IMG/VR virus record: IMGVR_UViG_3300044628_000447
Coordinates: 1-52,743 of that record
DNA from: a virus
Lineage: Duplodnaviria > Caudoviricetes
Length of the DNA stretch: 52,743 nt
Strand: one strand, 5' to 3'
In this document: positions 4,963-45,785 of the stretch, one piece after another
Layout: each line of letters starts with the position of its first letter
Position numbering within the stretch: the first letter of the stretch is position 1
The notes under the pieces: generated by a model
Seen by the model: the letters and a program-made list of their open reading frames with translations, nothing else
What the model was told of the DNA's origin: nothing
Database searches by the model: none
Position numbers and translations under genes: made by a program

Positions 4963-6192
4963 TTATTCTTCTAGTTTACTGATTTCACCGTTCATCTTTA
5001 CCGAAAAGGACACATTCCTTGGCCCTCTACGATTCTTGTCAATGTATATGCAGGACTTGTCATCCTTGTGCTTAATGTGGATTACCGCATTTGAGTGCTG
5101 CTTGATTGCGCGGGACTCGCGTAGCTTCCCTTCATCATTCAACTGACTGCCAGTTATCACAGGAGCCTTGATTCTTGTGGCGAGGTTCTTGAGCTTCCTA
5201 GCAATATCGGAGACTGTCTGTTCGCGGGACTCGCTGGTTTCGTTCTCCACGATCTGGATATAGTCAACGATTACCACATCTGCTTTTCCAAGGAGGGATA
5301 GTCTCTGTGATTCCGCGATTATGGAGTCTAGGTCAAGAATATCGTCAACGATAGTCAGTGGCATGTCTCTGATTTCCAAGATTGCCTTACTGATTTTTGG
5401 AATCTCCCTTGAATAAATTGTCCGGTATTCTTCCGCAGCCCGAACCGGGATACCAGCATAGGATGCAACGAATCGCTCCAAGATGTCTGTCTTATCCATC
5501 TCAAGTGAGAAGTAAGCTACGCTTTTGTTTTCAAGAATATTAGCTAAACCAGCTTGAACCATGTAGATAGACTTACCACCACCCGATTCAGAGGCTACTG
5601 TCAATAGTTCCCCTTCGTGCAGCCCACCTTTCATCTTGCTATCGAGGTTGACTAATCCCGTCTTATACTTCGTTCTCTCTTGAGCCCCCTCCATCTGGTC
5701 GATAAGCTGCCCAGCGATTTCCTTCACGCTTGATAGGTTTGGCGATTTATCATTCTGACTAGTGGCAATCTTATCGGCTATGTCCTTCAAATCCGCCTTG
5801 GCAAGCTGGATGTCCCTCCTGTTATCCTCGATGATCTTGAGCGTGTCTCGGTATCCCTTGTAGCGGATTAGGTCTTTCCGATAATCGTTGGCCATCTCGA
5901 TTACTATGTCAGATGGTTTCATTTTGTGAGCTGAGAGAATGTCATATACTGCATTCTCCCCACCGATGATTTCTAGCTTCCCGTTTTTGGATAGTTCTGC
6001 AATGGCTGAGAACTCGCTTGTGTCCCCTGTCCGCTGGTATGTATCTCGGAGAGCTTCAAAGACGGTTCTATGGGCATCTATGGCGAAATAATCCACATCC
6101 CAGATTTGTGTAGCTAGGATGTTTGGGTTGCTTGCGATCAGAGATAGTGCTCCCACTTCTCCGAGGTGGAATATTGGTGTGTCTGTGTTCAT
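4963..6192 (-). CDS. dnaB: DnaB-like replicative helicase
   Basis: Walker A ASESGGGKS, YFSLEM, Walker B VIVDYIQ, SQLN, LRESRAI, KNRRG. Confidence 0.92.
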   Translation of the reverse strand: MNTDTPIFHLGEVGALSLIASNPNILATQIWDVDYFAIDAHRTVFEALRDTYQRTGDTSEFSAIAELSKNGKLEIIGGENAVYDILSAHKMKPSDIVIEMANDYRKDLIRYKGYRDTLKIIEDNRRDIQLAKADLKDIADKIATSQNDKSPNLSSVKEIAGQLIDQMEGAQERTKYKTGLVNLDSKMKGGLHEGELLTVASESGGGKSIYMVQAGLANILENKSVAYFSLEMDKTDILERFVASYAGIPVRAAEEYRTIYSREIPKISKAILEIRDMPLTIVDDILDLDSIIAESQRLSLLGKADVVIVDYIQIVENETSESREQTVSDIARKLKNLATRIKAPVITGSQLNDEGKLRESRAIKQHSNAVIHIKHKDDKSCIYIDKNRRGPRNVSFSVKMNGEISKLEE

Positions 6193-6211
6193 TGGTTATC
6201 GGTTCCGATAA

Positions 6212-7099
6212 TTAGAGGTTTGGCTTTACGGTTGACCAATCTATCTCTTCAAAGGATTGGTTTGTTTGTTGGGGTTTCTTTTGGTTGGATACCCACTCTG
6301 CTTTGAATCCTCTCCAACCACGGAGGACACATTCACGAAGCGCATCTTCCAGCGGCCAACCCGCCTTCTGTGCTTCTGACTTGATAATGTTTAGAACCGC
6401 TGGAGTAATCTTGGCTTTCTTTTCCTTGCGGATGTCGCAGAACGCTTCCCAAGTTTGCTCGGTAATCCCGTCTGGCTTTGGGGGGGGAACGATCGATTTT
6501 CGCAACCCTTGTGTCTTCATGGAACGGGGGGGTCTTGAATCAGAAGCTTTAGCTTCGCTTGCTTGTGCGGTAGCACGCTGACTTTCGTTGGTGTTGAAAA
6601 AGTCATTTGTGGAAGACGAAGCCTCTGCTGAGTTTTCCACGCCTATTTGCATTTCTATACCATTACTAGGTATTTCATTTACTATTCCTAGGTATTTGTC
6701 TGAGGTTTTTCCACAGTGTAGGTTTTCCGTAGTGTGGAAAACCCCTAGGGTGGCTGACTGTGCAAACCGAACTTCTACATACCACTTCTCCACTCTGCCA
6801 CCCTCCCCCTTTCTAACAACATCATCAATAAAACCAGCACTCTTGAGTTGTTTTTTGGCATGAGAAAACCTATCTCTTCCCCACCCAAGACCATTCATTG
6901 CGTATTCAGATGTCGCAAATACAGAACTATTCTGCTGCCACTTTCTTGTGTAGCAGTAGAAAGTGTAAAGAGCCAAGCAGTCTCCGGGGTTTTCCATCTT
7001 CAGAATCCTATCCACTGATGGTTTTGTTAATCCAACCAGATAATCTTCTGGCAATCCAGATGCCATCGTTTCGCATCTTTCGTATATCGTTACGTCCAT
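6212..7099 (-). CDS. Phage replication initiator (lambda O / replisome-organiser-like); probable start MDVTIYER
   Basis: Directly upstream of dnaB; wHTH-like N-terminus; C-terminal W..F...RK.KK...T...GW.G motif; internal repeats. Confidence 0.75.
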   Translation of the reverse strand: MDVTIYERCETMASGLPEDYLVGLTKPSVDRILKMENPGDCLALYTFYCYTRKWQQNSSVFATSEYAMNGLGWGRDRFSHAKKQLKSAGFIDDVVRKGEGGRVEKWYVEVRFAQSATLGVFHTTENLHCGKTSDKYLGIVNEIPSNGIEMQIGVENSAEASSSTNDFFNTNESQRATAQASEAKASDSRPPRSMKTQGLRKSIVPPPKPDGITEQTWEAFCDIRKEKKAKITPAVLNIIKSEAQKAGWPLEDALRECVLRGWRGFKAEWVSNQKKPQQTNQSFEEIDWSTVKPNL

Positions 7100-7232
7100 A
7101 AAAAAAGGCGACCCCTTGTAGTGGCGGACAAAAGCGGCAACTGACGCATGAGAGTGGTGAAACCACCACAAGGGATCATATATTTTATTTGTTTATTTAA
7201 TTTTGTCCTTCACATCGGCTCTCACCCCGATG
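7100..7232 (-). ncRNA. Putative cis-regulatory kissing-loop RNA, copy 1 (leader of replication initiator)
   Basis: 6-bp hairpin (7213-7232) and 15-bp stem (7110-7124/7163-7177); G-U pairs form only on the minus strand; loop complementary to 7148-7154. Confidence 0.65.
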
Positions 7233-7282
7233 GCAGAGATTGCTCCCTACGCCAACCATCCTAGAAATCGACACCTACCGTG

Positions 7283-7672
7283 TCAATACTTTATTTCAAT
7301 TTTTTCTTTCCCTCCACTAGTCCACAGAGGAAGATCGTCTAAAAGGTTATCCCACACTTCGTTGCATTCCTCTGATGTTGGCATCTCGATAATGGAAATC
7401 TTTTTATCAAGAGTAGCCTCCTTCTCATCCACCCTGCACTCTAGGAAGTAAATCTTGCTGACATTTTCCATGAGAACGAAGATCACAGCTTCCCCGTTTG
7501 GTTTTACGCCAAGGGTAATGAAAGGCCCGTCTTCATCGCAAGTCTCGTAGTGAACAACCAGACCCTCACCCAGAATCTTAGACAGAGCTAGATTGGATAT
7601 GAGGACGGAAGCCTGCATTGATGTGAGGATGTAGGTGGAAATTTGGTCTACGAGTTCTTTTGCGTTGTCCAT
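7283..7672 (-). CDS. Hypothetical protein
   Basis: 129 aa, first gene of the leftward operon. Confidence 0.7.
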   Translation of the reverse strand: MDNAKELVDQISTYILTSMQASVLISNLALSKILGEGLVVHYETCDEDGPFITLGVKPNGEAVIFVLMENVSKIYFLECRVDEKEATLDKKISIIEMPTSEECNEVWDNLLDDLPLWTSGGKEKIEIKY

Positions 7673-7728
7673 TATCGATACCGATAATCTGAGTTCATGC
7701 TTGACCTGTCAACAAAAGTTTGTAGACT
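7672..7728. promoter_or_regulatory. Divergent control region: palindrome 7672..7687 plus rightward promoter TTGACC-N14-TG-TAGACT (7701..7728)
   Basis: Motifs read directly between divergent genes; a leftward TTGACA lies at 7707..7712. Confidence 0.6.
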
Positions 7729-9166: not shown

Positions 9167-11974
9167 TCATTCGCCCCAGTCATCAGTAGCATAATCTTCC
9201 TCATCAGCAACTAACGCAGGCTTTTCATCTCTTGACCAAAACCTATTAGTTGGAACAGCTTTATCGGTTCCGATAAAAACAAGTCCGTTCTTTCTAGCGA
9301 TTTCTAAGGCGTATACAAATGAATCCGCGCAATTATCTACAAGGATTCCATTAGCATAATATACATTATCATTTTCGAGGACCAAGTTTAATACCCTTGC
9401 GTCCCTTGTTTCTTTTGATGATCGCACAACTTTTGGAGCAGCAAACGCGCTTCCTGTAAGGATCGCCGTTAAAATCTTTACCACATTCAGCACATTTATA
9501 GGTAACTGTTTTATACTTTTCACGATTTGCATTTTGGAAACAAGCCCCGCTACAATACTTGGATTTTGTTTTGTTTTGTGTGATGACTGGTTTTCCGCAT
9601 TGCTTGCAAGACCCATCAAACTTTTCACGTTTGAGAATGCTGTTGTATGCATGATTTCTATGCCACTCTCTTCCTTCTTCTGATGAGTGCCACTCTTTTG
9701 CCGCCTCTTGAGCAAGCTTAAGAGACTCCAAATTCCTTGCGTAATAATGTTGGTCTTTGAATCTTTCTTGCATATGCATCCGCATGTGTTCGGCTTTTGA
9801 AAGAAGCTCCATATTTTCAATTCTGTTATCAGTCCAATCGCCATTCTTGTGATGGATTTCAAGGCCATCAGGAATAGGCCCGTTGTGCTCAATCCAAATG
9901 ACTCGATGTAGAAGTCTCTCGCCCGTAGCCTTGTTCCAGTCTTGATAATATCGACCCGTTGTTTGAATGCCGTATTTGCGTCCGTTGTGAATAATGAATT
10001 TAGGATGTTCCATACAATTAGTCTTTCTTCAGACTCTATTGTATATGCGCCCGAAAGGTTGTCAAGCCTGACCCATCCATCTTCCCATGTAAAAACACGA
10101 TGTTTTCCTTTTCCTTCAAGAACTCTTCCATCACTAAATTCTACTTTGCATATTTCGTTGTGAATTTCATCATGGATAAAAGAAATTTTTGTTACACCAA
10201 AAGGAGTAATCACTTCATCTCCGGGCGTTAGATTTTCAATCTTTACTTGACCTTTTGGAGTCAAAATCAATGTTCCCTCAACAAAACAGTCTGGCGAGTA
10301 TCCAATTCGCGCCTTAAAATCATTCTTAGTCTCAATAGAAATCTTGCGAGTCTTTAGAGTATACCTTCTAAGGCAAAGCTCTCTACCAAGCTCGCTGGCA
10401 TAATCAATTCCCCATATCGTTCTACTTTTGAATCCGTGATAGGCAGAATAGTGGAACTCGGATACAAGACGATCATAAACATCCTTACATGGACGCTTAT
10501 CCACATCCGCCGCGATACGGTCAGTCGGCCTACCCATAGAAGAGATTAGAACAATACTATGTCCATTTTGGTCATACTTTAGCCACTCTCTGATAATAGC
10601 CTGCCCAACCCTACCGCCATCACCGGACACGTCCATACCAAATCTCTTTGGCTCAACACCAGCTTCTCGGCAGATACGGACAACTTCAGTAGCAAGTTGG
10701 TTCTCAAATTCAGCAGTCTCTCTAGCGGAAAGCTGGATAACGTGCTGTTTCTCCATAAACATTACTTTGTTTTGAGTCCCGCGAACATATCCAAGTTTGG
10801 CTATTGTAAGCACGCACCTATCGCCTCCAGCGGTAAATGCAGTATCAAATCCCGCTACTTTGGTTAATCCCTCTGAAGACCACAATGGTTCATCTGCGGT
10901 GTTGGCGTTACGTATCAAGTCGCTAGTAAGAATGGTCTGAGCAAAGCCAGCCTTTGGCCACCAGCCAATAGCGTTACGAACATAGTCAACAGCATTCTCA
11001 TCACCGTAGCACTGCCGCAACATCTGAGCCTGCTTTGTCCTATCCATTAGGAACGGGAATGGTGGAGGCTCATTAGATGGTGCTTGAAAGTTTGGCGAAC
11101 GCATGCCGTTATAGAACAAGCAAACGCCTGTCTCGGTTTCCCACTTGTCCATGTCCATTGACACGCTTTCAAAGTTAGCCTGCCCTCTTGGAAGACACCA
11201 ACGTGTATGCGGATTGTCACCAGAAGATGGGTTGCCGATACCGATAAACACCTTATCGTCGTTAGAAGAAAGGTTGACTTTACTTGTCAACGCACCCATC
11301 TCCATTTCTGGCAACTCATCAAGGGCCAATCGAATCCTACTGTTCTTACGACCACGGGTTGTGTCAATAGCCTTCTGTCCTTCGTTACCTTGAGGGAATG
11401 CCAGAGCTTTAATAGCGTTACTGTAGTCCTTTTGGTCTCCACCGTCTCCACCTCCCCATACGATCATGTGGCGGTAGTCCATTAGGTTTCCAATCTTAAT
11501 CCGCGAACACTTCCATAGCTTTGAGATGATACCCCAGATACGATCCTCGGACGCACCGATAGTCGTAGTGGCAACCCAAGAAGATGTGCAGGTAGGAGCG
11601 GAACACCAATCAAGAAGAATCCAAAGACCAACAGGAAACGACTTACCCATAGATGCGGCTCCAGCAAGAACCACGTCATCATTATTGCAAAGCTCTTCAA
11701 TAGTTCTAAGAAGCTGAGTATTCATGTAGCCTCTTGATTTTATAGACACATCGTTAGGCCACTGAAATTGAACTGCTTTAATAAAATGCTCGAATGGAGT
11801 CAGTAACTTAAAGTCGCCTAGATCAATATTATTCTTAATGCAATAAGTTCGGCCATACTGACCACGGGTTATTGAGTAGCAGAACAATTCAATACTCAAA
11901 TCGTCCATTGTGTCTGGAAAAGCCATCCCGTATTTATTGATCGTTTTCTTGCTTGACATAATTCCATTTAACAA
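9167..11974 (-). CDS. terL: Terminase large subunit with intein
   Basis: Walker A GAASMGKS, Walker B LALDE, GNP coupling motif, RNase H-like GFDTA..GGD and SPD|CAD; true start may be ATG 11959. Confidence 0.9.
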   Translation of the reverse strand: MLNGIMSSKKTINKYGMAFPDTMDDLSIELFCYSITRGQYGRTYCIKNNIDLGDFKLLTPFEHFIKAVQFQWPNDVSIKSRGYMNTQLLRTIEELCNNDDVVLAGAASMGKSFPVGLWILLDWCSAPTCTSSWVATTTIGASEDRIWGIISKLWKCSRIKIGNLMDYRHMIVWGGGDGGDQKDYSNAIKALAFPQGNEGQKAIDTTRGRKNSRIRLALDELPEMEMGALTSKVNLSSNDDKVFIGIGNPSSGDNPHTRWCLPRGQANFESVSMDMDKWETETGVCLFYNGMRSPNFQAPSNEPPPFPFLMDRTKQAQMLRQCYGDENAVDYVRNAIGWWPKAGFAQTILTSDLIRNANTADEPLWSSEGLTKVAGFDTAFTAGGDRCVLTIAKLGYVRGTQNKVMFMEKQHVIQLSARETAEFENQLATEVVRICREAGVEPKRFGMDVSGDGGRVGQAIIREWLKYDQNGHSIVLISSMGRPTDRIAADVDKRPCKDVYDRLVSEFHYSAYHGFKSRTIWGIDYASELGRELCLRRYTLKTRKISIETKNDFKARIGYSPDCFVEGTLILTPKGQVKIENLTPGDEVITPFGVTKISFIHDEIHNEICKVEFSDGRVLEGKGKHRVFTWEDGWVRLDNLSGAYTIESEERLIVWNILNSLFTTDANTAFKQRVDIIKTGTRLRARDFYIESFGLSTTGLFLMALKSITRMAIGLITELKIWSFFQKPNTCGCICKKDSKTNIITQGIWSLLSLLKRRQKSGTHQKKEESGIEIMHTTAFSNVKSLMGLASNAENQSSHKTKQNPSIVAGLVSKMQIVKSIKQLPINVLNVVKILTAILTGSAFAAPKVVRSSKETRDARVLNLVLENDNVYYANGILVDNCADSFVYALEIARKNGLVFIGTDKAVPTNRFWSRDEKPALVADEEDYATDDWGE
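9332..10288 (-). mobile_element. Intein (319 aa) in the TerL nuclease motif
   Basis: Block A CFVEGTLILT, block B KGKHRVF, C-terminal YYANGILVDN followed by extein Cys+1. Confidence 0.9.
9369..10013 (-). CDS. HNH homing endonuclease nested out of frame inside the intein
   Basis: LHRVIW..HNGPIP.GLEIHHKNG...DNRIENMELLS..EH (HNH_3-like) plus CxxC...CSxxC Zn fingers; -1 frame relative to TerL. Confidence 0.88.
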   Translation of the reverse strand: MEHPKFIIHNGRKYGIQTTGRYYQDWNKATGERLLHRVIWIEHNGPIPDGLEIHHKNGDWTDNRIENMELLSKAEHMRMHMQERFKDQHYYARNLESLKLAQEAAKEWHSSEEGREWHRNHAYNSILKREKFDGSCKQCGKPVITQNKTKSKYCSGACFQNANREKYKTVTYKCAECGKDFNGDPYRKRVCCSKSCAIIKRNKGRKGIKLGPRK

Positions 11975-12369: not shown

Positions 12370-12400
12370 CTAACTCATTATCGTTTACGATAACTATACA

Positions 12401-18464: not shown

Positions 18465-18492
18465 TTATCGTAACCGATAAAGAATTTTAATT

Positions 18493-23991: not shown

Positions 23992-25155
<1,164 letters not shown>

Positions 25156-30244: not shown

Positions 30245-30259
30245 TTATCGGAATCGATA

Positions 30260-44876: not shown

Positions 44877-45635
44877 TTAAAATAAAACTAGGGTGTCCAG
44901 CTTCTTGTCTGATTTTGAAAGATTATCCTTTGCCCAAAGAGGACGAAGGTTGCGATAATGATTAAGCCTAATTATCTCATCTTCTGTTTTTTCCATGGAA
45001 ACAGGCATGATATGGTCAATGTGCCATAGGTTGCGATTATCCCAAGACATTCCATCAACGAACTGAGATTCGATGTGAGATTTAAATTCTTCAAACGAAC
45101 AACCAAGAATATCGGCTGTTTTAGTATTCTTTCTGAATCCCATTTTTTGCAACGAGTTTTTTATGTTATTATGAATAAGCATTCTACATGCAAATAATGG
45201 ATCTTTTTTCATTCTATCATTTCTAGAATCATAAATTTTCTTTTTATTTGACTGAAAATATTTTTTACCACTGTTAGGATTTTTTAGCCTCCATTTTCTA
45301 GTTTGATCTCTGCCTCTTTCTGGATTCTTCCAATAATATCTTTTAGATGCGGCTCTTTGTTTTATTTTTATATTTTCAAATATTTCTTTCGTAACCCACC
45401 TTTCACCATTTGCATAACTTTGACAATAACACAAAAAAATCATTCCATCTTCCCTAGTATCTCCGCTCCTTCTAACTCCATTTATTTTTTTCGCATTAAA
45501 TACTTTATTGATTCTATCTGATTTATTTTTTTTGAAATCATGTTCTGTCATCCATTTTTCACCATTCTTGCAATCAGGATGGTATCCCCAAAACACCATT
45601 CCATCTTCTCTAATTGTTCCACGTTTTATTTTCAT
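44877..45635 (-). CDS. Free-standing HNH homing-type endonuclease (start MKIKRG)
   Basis: GCS.EEFK.HIESQF..GMSWDN...WHIDHI.P...NHY.NL.PLWA.DNLSK; two REDGM.F repeats; AT-rich. Confidence 0.85.
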   Translation of the reverse strand: MKIKRGTIREDGMVFWGYHPDCKNGEKWMTEHDFKKNKSDRINKVFNAKKINGVRRSGDTREDGMIFLCYCQSYANGERWVTKEIFENIKIKQRAASKRYYWKNPERGRDQTRKWRLKNPNSGKKYFQSNKKKIYDSRNDRMKKDPLFACRMLIHNNIKNSLQKMGFRKNTKTADILGCSFEEFKSHIESQFVDGMSWDNRNLWHIDHIMPVSMEKTEDEIIRLNHYRNLRPLWAKDNLSKSDKKLDTLVLF

Positions 45636-45760
45636 ATATAAAAGGACGCCCCCGCATGGCCACAAGACTGTCTGAATGACAGGTGAAACCTTTACCATGC
45701 AAGGGCGGTATATTTATAGTTCAAATTTAATCTTACGTTAATCGGGGTTTCACGCCGATT
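45636..45760 (-). ncRNA. Putative cis-regulatory kissing-loop RNA, copy 2 (leader of HNH gene)
   Basis: 6-bp hairpin (45740-45760) and 14-bp stem (45647-60/45694-707) with G-U pairs on the minus strand; loop complementary to 45683-45690. Confidence 0.65.
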
Positions 45761-45785
45761 TGTGTAAGTTAAATTAAACTATAAT

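Follow-up and report, generated by a model that had tools for sequence, protein, structure and literature searches.

A double-pseudoknot leader RNA before the replication genes of an uncultured lake-water phage and its relatives

Comparative evidence for the leader fold

A leader RNA of about 150 nt was identified directly before the replication initiator gene on the minus strand of the virus record IMGVR_UViG_3300044628_000447 (Duplodnaviria; Caudoviricetes). The window, meaning the whole stretch of DNA that was analyzed, is the complete 52,743-bp record and bears direct terminal repeats. The source phage is a lake-water virus, and the leader RNA is common to dozens of its uncultured relatives. 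It is a real and well-supported family of structured RNA, apparently undescribed, that may gate the replication genes. The fold, the strand, the position and the portability of the leader can be regarded as established from the comparison of sequences.

The original prediction, made from the letters of the window alone, described a hairpin CAUCGG...CCGAUG, a 15-bp stem (GAUCCCUUGUGGUGG/CCACUACAAGGGGUC) with two G-U pairs and, inside this stem, a CUCUCAU complementary to the first loop. All of these were found on the minus strand where they had been placed (Table 1). The hairpin is designated P1 and the loop pairing PK1; the 15-bp stem is the core of a helix, P2, that extends to 17 bp. The A-rich linker, given as 35 nt, is present and measures 34 nt by recount, but it is not unstructured, because its 5' part pairs with a strand further downstream. 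The element ends, as described, in GCC-U7-AUG, with the AUG at 7099..7097. The prediction recognized a single pseudoknot and had missed the second one (PK2), the 5' hairpin P0 and the small hairpin P3.

The same layout with compensating sequence recurs in a second copy, as had also been predicted, and a full-model unfiltered search found exactly two copies in the window. Single-sequence folding recovers P1 and P2 in both. The folding z-score of copy 1 was -2.1, with 6 of 200 shuffled sequences equally stable, and that of copy 2 was -7.0, with none of 200 equally stable. The decisive support that the leader is more than a chance arrangement is comparative.

Seventeen distinct homologues, remaining after three exact duplicates and one 5'-truncated copy had been dropped, were aligned with MAFFT without any fitting to structure. 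In this alignment 91.2% of the cells pair, compared with 73.7% in column shuffles (none of 500 reached the observed value) and 41-48% in slid controls. PK1 was paired in all 119 of its 119 cells, and five of its seven pairs changed on both sides; of the other two, one is U-A in every member and the other is G-U, G-C or A-U. Changes on both sides were also seen in 14 of the 15 core pairs of P2, two of three in P3 and four of seven in P0. Across the family PK1 falls into six matched loop/target classes: GUGAGAG/CUCUCAY, GUAGGAG/CUCCUAU, GUAGGAA/UUCCUAU, GUGAAGAA/UUCUUCAC, AUGAAGAA/UUCUUCAU and GUGAAACC/GGUUUCAC, the last being that of copy 2. The original claim of a cis-located, pseudoknotted leader directly before the replication initiator is thus supported.

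Only about 11 columns are invariant among the 17 diverse members, and most of these lie within helices. Several unpaired positions are conserved, namely YCAKUY in the loop of P3, the AUAU and the CC that precede and follow P2, and a loop motif, AUUAAAUUGAAC. A tertiary pairing between the A/U-rich loop and the P3 loop (UGAAC/GUUC, AACU/AGUU) was compared by eye, proved inconsistent across members and was dropped.

G-U and U-G pairs are frequent in the helices, which restricts the fold to the minus-strand transcript, in agreement with the strand originally proposed. The possibility was considered that the element acts instead as DNA, with inverted repeats and an AT-rich spacer serving as an origin or operator next to the initiator gene. 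The location next to replication genes and the AT-rich middle would suit such a site. However, on the opposite strand the many G-U pairs become A-C mismatches, the crossing pairings and the compensatory changes are intelligible only in a single RNA strand, and the words vary from phage to phage and are not the same in the two copies. A DNA-level function is therefore highly improbable.

The specificity of the pairings was also compared between members. A cross-matrix of PK1 with G-U pairs allowed did not discriminate between them, because loops rich in purines form wobble pairs with the pyrimidine strand as well; this uninformative matrix pointed to PK2. PK2 joins the 5' part of the A-rich linker to the pyrimidine-rich strand that separates P3 from the 3' arm of P2, and is new, being absent from the earlier description of the element. 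In a comparison that requires no alignment, 15 of the 17 members had 7-10 bp of continuous Watson-Crick pairing between cognate strands, whereas the mean for non-cognate strands was 4.75. Of 64 distinct members, 49 have 7 bp or more of uninterrupted Watson-Crick pairing, and 35 distinct words occur among the 64. On an alignment anchored at the 5' ends, all eight pairs of PK2 changed on both sides and 87.8% of the cells pair (73.7% in shuffles, 42-65% in slid controls), although this alignment was anchored on the PK2 pairing itself and is biased towards it. Five helices (P0, P1, P2, P3 and PK1) are thus supported on the unfitted alignment, and PK2 is supported on the anchored one and by the alignment-free comparison.

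The 5' half of the RNA runs through P0, P1 (whose loop is the 5' strand of PK1), a spacer of 2-13 nt, the 5' strand of PK2 and an A/U-rich loop of 15-29 nt. The 3' half follows with the 5' arm of P2, 2-10 nt, the 3' strand of PK1, P3, the 3' strand of PK2, the 3' arm of P2, the CC tail and the AUG. P2 is closed by the G of GCC, so that the tail begins with CC. The interior of P2 measures 31-38 nt, and the strands within it abut with almost no unpaired bases. As judged from the pairings, PK1 and PK2 link the leader's 5' half with the inside of the long stem. The topology suggests two coaxial stacks, P1-PK1-P3 and PK2-P2, and with such stacking the A/U-rich loop must span the length of the PK2-P2 stack.

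Table 1. Positions of the two leader copies, their elements and the adjoining genes in the window
Feature	Positions	Strand	Remarks
Promoter-like site	7258..7286	minus	TTGACA (7286..7281), 17 nt, TAGGAT (7263..7258); 10/12 match
Leader copy 1	7250..7100	minus	about 150 nt
P0	7233..7250	minus	7-bp hairpin GUAGGGA(GCAA)UCUCUGC, GNRA tetraloop; presumed 5' end of the transcript
P1	7232..7213	minus	hairpin CAUCGG-GGUGAGAG (loop)-CCGAUG
PK1, 5' strand	7225..7219	minus	P1 loop bases GUGAGAG
PK2, 5' strand	7208..7201	minus	GGACAAAA; 5' part of the A-rich linker, pairs with 7133..7126
A/U-rich loop	7179..7200	minus	single-stranded, semi-conserved AUUAAAU(U)GAAC/AAAC, 3' end AUAU (alignments)
P2, 5' arm	7162..7178	minus	17 bp with 7125..7109
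PK1, 3' strand	7154..7148	minus	CUCUCAU; pairs with loop 7225..7219
P3	7134..7147	minus	small hairpin GCG-UCAGUUGC (loop)-CGC; gapless join to PK1 (5' side) and PK2 (3' side)
PK2, 3' strand	7133..7126	minus	UUUUGUCC; between P3 and the 3' arm of P2, abuts the latter
P2, 3' arm	7109..7125	minus	GCCACUACAAGGGGUCG
Tail	7100..7108	minus	CC + U7 between P2 and the start codon
Upstream open reading frame	7090..7179	minus	29 codons; AUG 7179..7177 at the base of P2, runs through P2
First gene of the replication operon	6212..7099	minus	O-like replication initiator, 295 aa; phrog_678 at 2e-25
DnaB helicase gene	4963..6192	minus	after the initiator gene; DnaB_C at 2e-35
Leader copy 2	45760..45636	minus	67 bits with model R2
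Copy 2, P1	45760..45740	minus	
Copy 2, PK1	45753..45746 x 45690..45683	minus	loop GUGAAACC with interior GGUUUCAC
Copy 2, PK2	45737..45729 x 45669..45661	minus	weak
Copy 2, P2	45707..45695 x 45659..45647	minus	
Copy 2, P3	45682..45668	minus	
Copy 2, tail	45646..45636	minus	
Gene behind copy 2	44877..45635	minus	HNH/endonuclease VII-like; true start AUG 45635; phrog_1035 at 8e-12

Relatives, promoter and genes behind the leader

When the locus of copy 1 was compared by blastn with 50,697 phage records there were no matches, and the locus of copy 2 gave only five, which were short and unrelated. The replication initiator and the helicase beside copy 2 had no relatives among uncultured viral contigs at the protein level. 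The DnaB protein, and then an alignment of DnaB, retrieved close relatives from contigs of uncultured viruses and of metagenomes. Five leaders were used to build a covariance model (R1), which finds the leader in all close relatives with sufficient upstream sequence, with 14 matches among the window and 80 loci and seven among 31 further loci. Nothing credible was found by R1 near distant DnaB genes. A broader model of 58 sequences (R2) likewise gave nothing near distant DnaB loci except one borderline match (locus L081, E = 0.066). R1 was also run on a genome collection, a route that must be regarded as insensitive because it missed the known copy in genome G001.

Exact-word scans of viral contigs with the P1 hairpins of two classes gave members at 54 of 80 and then at 22 of 80 of the loci listed. 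As the loop word is fixed in such scans, they add nothing to the covariation of PK1; for the other helices they add much. After removal of duplicates from 87 sequences, the family comprises at least 65 distinct ones. The datasets listed as holding the leader are DNA metagenomes from lake water, apart from one from wastewater and one unspecified.

The borderline match (L081:4030-4145, plus strand) is a simpler leader before the replication genes of a distant phage, whose DnaB is 24% identical. Its hairpin loop GUGAGAC is complementary to a GUCUCAC atop a perfect terminator-like stem, which is followed by U7 and AUG. This leader is perhaps distantly related to the family.

A search of Rfam gave no matches in the window at the gathering thresholds, in line with the statement in the original prediction that the element could not be assigned to a known family. 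When the E value was relaxed to 10, both copies gave matches at chance level only, the best scoring 23.5 bits where the gathering score is 100, and no bacterial cis-regulator of the leader's shape was among them. No tRNA was found by ARAGORN. In the literature searched, no description of the leader RNA was found. PMC10690425 reports 8,495 unnamed candidate RNAs from IMG/VR in its supplements, and the leader family may be listed anonymously among them.

Upstream of the leader, the window has a promoter-like site whose exact pattern, TTGACA-N17-TAGnnT, occurs nowhere else in the window. P0 begins about 7 nt after its -10 element. Among the 51 distinct relatives with at least 75 nt of upstream sequence, TTGAC[ACT]-N16-18-TAnnnT precedes the leader in 47 and a GNRA-capped P0 stands at the equivalent place in 48. 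Because the -10 element ends about 5-8 nt before P0, this hairpin is probably the 5' end of the RNA.

At the other end, GCC and the start codon are separated by 9-16 nt in all 64 members and by 11-13 nt in 55 of them. The CC after P2 is invariant in the family, and the tail is pyrimidine-rich and then A-rich. The base of P2 sits 11-13 nt from the AUG, which is where mRNA leaves the 30S subunit. The start codon and the tail are unpaired in the predicted folds.

The first open reading frame (ORF) behind the leader belongs to at least 10 unrelated families, mostly O-like, DnaD-like or helix-turn-helix replication initiators; two of the families are small and have no known function. Nuclease genes follow the leader in two cases. 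One is copy 2, which is flanked by the genes for a superfamily-2 helicase and an HNH/endonuclease VII-like protein and has neither P0 nor a clear promoter. The other is L293 (562-1335, minus strand), where the ORF directly behind a leader of the GUGAGAG class is weakly HNH-like (phrog_8048, 2.4e-4). In L235, the closest homologue of the copy-2 HNH gene (71% identity) stands behind the same helicase gene without a leader. The start of the HNH gene is thereby fixed at 45635, and copy 2 can be recognized as an insertion or loss polymorphism. Given this polymorphism and the variety of downstream families, the leader is a portable module tied to the head of an operon and not to one protein. Copies 1 and 2 do not cross-pair. 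In copy 2 the A/U-rich linker (45716-45739) can also pair with upstream sequence (45764-45784), which would extend P1 to a hairpin of about 21 bp and would compete with the weak PK2 there.

Possible modes of action

Structured leaders that dose replication initiators are textbook knowledge for plasmids and for the satellite phage P4. To our knowledge, such leaders are undescribed for virulent uncultured phages or for hosts that seemingly lack Shine-Dalgarno sites. By analogy, the leader would work most like the rep leaders of IncI/IncB plasmids (PMC8053102) and the P4 immunity leader (PMC4825925).

The reading we prefer, and hold tentatively, is that the leader is a cis-acting dosing gate of replication-initiator expression, combining an attenuator with a limit on ribosome loading. 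Its effects on termination and translation we infer. It would be transcribed from its own promoter as a compact 5' leader of the replication operon, and PK1, P3 and PK2 would fold first during transcription. Since these elements would pre-fold the 31-38-nt interior, the 15-17-bp P2 could close at once behind the polymerase; the gapless joining of the interior strands fits such a pre-organizing role. P2, the CC and the pyrimidine/U tract would then stop part of the transcripts just before the first gene. On the mRNA that is read through, the rigid domain would stand 11-13 nt 5' of the AUG, where the ribosome footprint ends, and would limit or time loading. The outcome would be a set level of initiator expression that does not depend on which gene lies downstream, and the same module would have been placed before a homing-endonuclease gene as well. 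The covariation, the fixed position, the independence of the gene and the terminator-like look, including that of L081, all speak for a gate.

The original prediction had compared the stem and U tract to a terminator, and this comparison stands in part. Like an intrinsic terminator or attenuator, the leader has a GC-rich stem and a U-rich tract between the promoter and the first gene, with a U-run of at least four after the CC in 44 of 64 members. Several points weigh against the gate. The U-run is absent from the other 20 of 64 members, and the invariant CC separates stem from tract. Furthermore, a hairpin with an interior of 31-38 nt is a non-canonical intrinsic terminator, the canonical loop being 3-8 nt, and a consensus terminator scan did not call P2 and its tail. 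As to the attenuator or translational switch originally proposed, no conserved competing (antiterminator) pairing was found, whether of P2 or of the tail with upstream segments, so that there is no evident two-state switch. With the tail and AUG unpaired as noted, translational repression is not evident either, and no third complementary site was seen near the start codon. Moreover, the narrow spacing to the AUG could merely reflect compaction of the genome, and the terminator and ribosome rules that were applied may not be those of the host.

A purely translational, plasmid-like mechanism was considered as a possible but less probable alternative. Here ribosomes would begin at the AUG at the base of P2, translate a short leader ORF through P2, unfold it and terminate at or close to the main AUG; initiation at the main gene would be coupled, and the pseudoknots would set its frequency. 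In the window the stop codon (UAA, 7092..7090) of the upstream ORF overlaps the main ORF. A leader ORF starting from an AUG at or near the base of P2, behind the unpaired A/U-rich stretch, is present in 46 of the 50 members examined, which are mostly of the GUGAGAG class. In 23 of these 46 its stop codon falls between -6 and +11 nt relative to the main AUG, including 10 AUGA overlaps. However, no AUG occurs between P1 and the main AUG in 16 of 20 distinct GAAGAA-class members, nor in L012, L014, L016 and copy 2; with its absence from most of the GAAGAA class, the leader ORF does not define the family. Its length (from 6 to more than 49 codons) and its frame vary, nine members have in-frame fusions to the gene, and an open frame through a GC-rich stem is expected from base composition alone. 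An A-rich leader may in addition suffice for initiation, because most genes of the phage lack a Shine-Dalgarno motif (found in just 14 of 49 genes by a loose definition, with A/T-rich upstream regions).

Within the reading frame of the upstream ORF, the U7 tract of the window also gives the heptamer U UUU UUA (7105..7099, minus strand). A -1 frameshift at this heptamer, joining the upstream ORF to the initiator frame, was rejected since the arrangement is not conserved in relatives.

The plasmid precedent for coupling is provided by repY-repZ of IncI/IncB and tap-repA of R1 (PMC8053102). The IncI-alpha/IncB leader (ColIb-P9 repY-repZ, pMU720; with the antisense Inc RNA) resembles the phage leader in its place before a replication-initiator gene, in a 5' hairpin loop that pairs with a distant downstream sequence as a pseudoknot, and in a short leader ORF that ends at the initiator start, as in many of the phage members. 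It differs in that the phage target of PK1 lies inside P2, 48-55 nt from the AUG, and not beside the ribosome site, which also speaks against coupling in the phage leader. The latter has in addition two pseudoknots plus P0 and P3, belongs to a phage and not to a plasmid, and shares no similarity of sequence or model with the plasmid leaders. No convincing antisense gene was found: matches to an antisense promoter are weak (8-9 of 12) in 12 of 17 members, use the conserved AUAU read backwards as a -10 and are lacking in the other five, and no terminator for an antisense RNA was found. The analogy to plasmid rep control drawn in the original prediction is therefore only partial, given a leader ORF that is present in many members but absent from most of the GAAGAA class, and the weak matches to an antisense promoter.

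The leader might also be a receptor or a catalyst, such as a metabolite riboswitch, a protein operator, a docking site for the ribosome or RNA polymerase resembling an internal ribosome entry site (IRES) or a put RNA, or a self-cleaving RNA. A fold of six helices with two pseudoknots exceeds what a plain attenuator needs, the unpaired positions YCAKUY, AUAU, CC and AUUAAAUUGAAC are conserved, and the base of P2 lies at the mRNA exit of the 30S subunit. In the pistol ribozyme the P1 loop pairs with a strand between the 5' arm of P2 and P3, and P1, the pseudoknot and P3 can stack. The topology of PK1 and the possible stacking of P1, pseudoknot and P3 are alike in the leader. Unlike the ribozyme, the leader is three times larger, its junction corresponding to the cleavage site is paired (as PK2), and no ribozyme or riboswitch model of Rfam was matched even at E values up to 10. 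There are also few invariant nucleotides to make up a ligand pocket or an active site. A receptor or catalyst is accordingly judged unlikely.

A further alternative is pairing in trans, as with the CI RNA of P4. A terminated or processed leader RNA would pair with nascent leaders of the same address and shut off the replication genes, and the loop words would be immunity or incompatibility classes among co-infecting relatives. Relatives that share the same promoter and P0 but differ in their PK1/PK2 words, for example L010/L011/L018, L013 and L012/L014/L016, are consistent with this possibility, as are the six PK1 classes, the 35 PK2 words and the failure of the two copies in one genome to cross-pair. 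On the other side, both partners belong to a single transcript and pairing in cis can occupy them, which leaves no free loop. P2 changes equally fast (14 of 15 pairs), and no special diversifying pressure on the address is therefore needed. No c4 or IsrK/SeqA match was found in Rfam. Such pairing in trans is considered improbable.

The precedent for it is P4 immunity, where the outcome is premature termination before the replication genes (PMC4825925). The P4 system (CI RNA with seqA and seqC) and the c4 RNA of P1/P7 share with the phage leader an untranslated replication-operon leader with internally complementary words. They differ in that the processed P4 RNA acts in trans on two flanking sites, whereas the phage leader can be satisfied in cis.

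Going further, the pseudoknot words could be a programmable address through which leaders pair with sister transcripts, so that a phage would count its own leader RNAs and shut off its replication genes while remaining blind to co-infecting relatives with other addresses. Equally, the knotted domain could be a module for docking the ribosome or the polymerase, the bacterial counterpart of an IRES or put RNA. Both ideas are speculative and more probably wrong than right by a wide measure. If true, address reading would amount to a code of immunity or incompatibility written in RNA and used by virulent phages whose hosts have no Shine-Dalgarno sites.

Finally, the leader could be a 5' stabilizer against nucleases that depend on the 5' end or act 5' to 3', or the PK2-P2 stack (23-27 bp) could be a site for RNase III. 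Hairpin stabilizers at the 5' end and RNase III sites are known from phage early mRNAs. P0 stands at the predicted +1, and the fold is compact with few single-stranded bases. However, copy 2 lies inside an operon and has no P0, simple hairpins are enough for stabilization, and the pyrimidine/U tract and fixed spacing would be left unexplained. There is little probability that stabilization or processing is the role of the leader.

In the leader of T4 gene 32 an A/U stretch is unpaired as far as the AUG, and the gene's own product, a protein that binds single-stranded DNA, is the regulator. The phage leader is similar in having a 5' pseudoknot and then an A/U-rich stretch before a replication-related phage gene. 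It is dissimilar in that its A/U-rich loop is closed by P2 and in that the downstream gene varies. The gene 32 leader pseudoknot is mentioned in PMC10690425.

The covariation data are sufficient for an Rfam-style family, and the double-pseudoknot architecture matches no Rfam family. Because it is portable across at least 10 gene families, including homing endonucleases, the leader is a candidate expression-control part and a possible handle on replication timing in such phages.

Other features of the genome

The host was sought by scanning genome contigs with the DnaB alignment, which gave no close prophage; the best matches had 33% identity and came from mixed phyla. The Bacteroidota -7 motif TAnnTTTG is not enriched in the window, with 41 matches compared with 40 expected.

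A large terminase-like ORF (9167-11974, minus strand; phrog_30251) contains a Hint domain and therefore probably an intein.

The palindrome TATCG-N4-CGATA, often TTATCGnnnnCGATAA, occurs at 26 sites in the window, 20 of them perfect, compared with 0.87 expected. Examples are 6197-6210, 7673-7686, 12379-12392, 18466-18479, 24003-24016 and 30246-30259. Many copies lie 3-25 nt 5' of start codons on both strands, and the palindrome is also present in relatives, just 5' of the leader promoter. It may serve as an operator throughout the phage, as a promoter or as an RNA hairpin.

An ORF of 129 aa (7283-7672, minus strand) ends within the -35 element of the leader promoter. It has no Pfam or PHROG match. 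Homologues with 20-32% identity are found upstream in 12 of 15 related loci, and the product is possibly a regulator.

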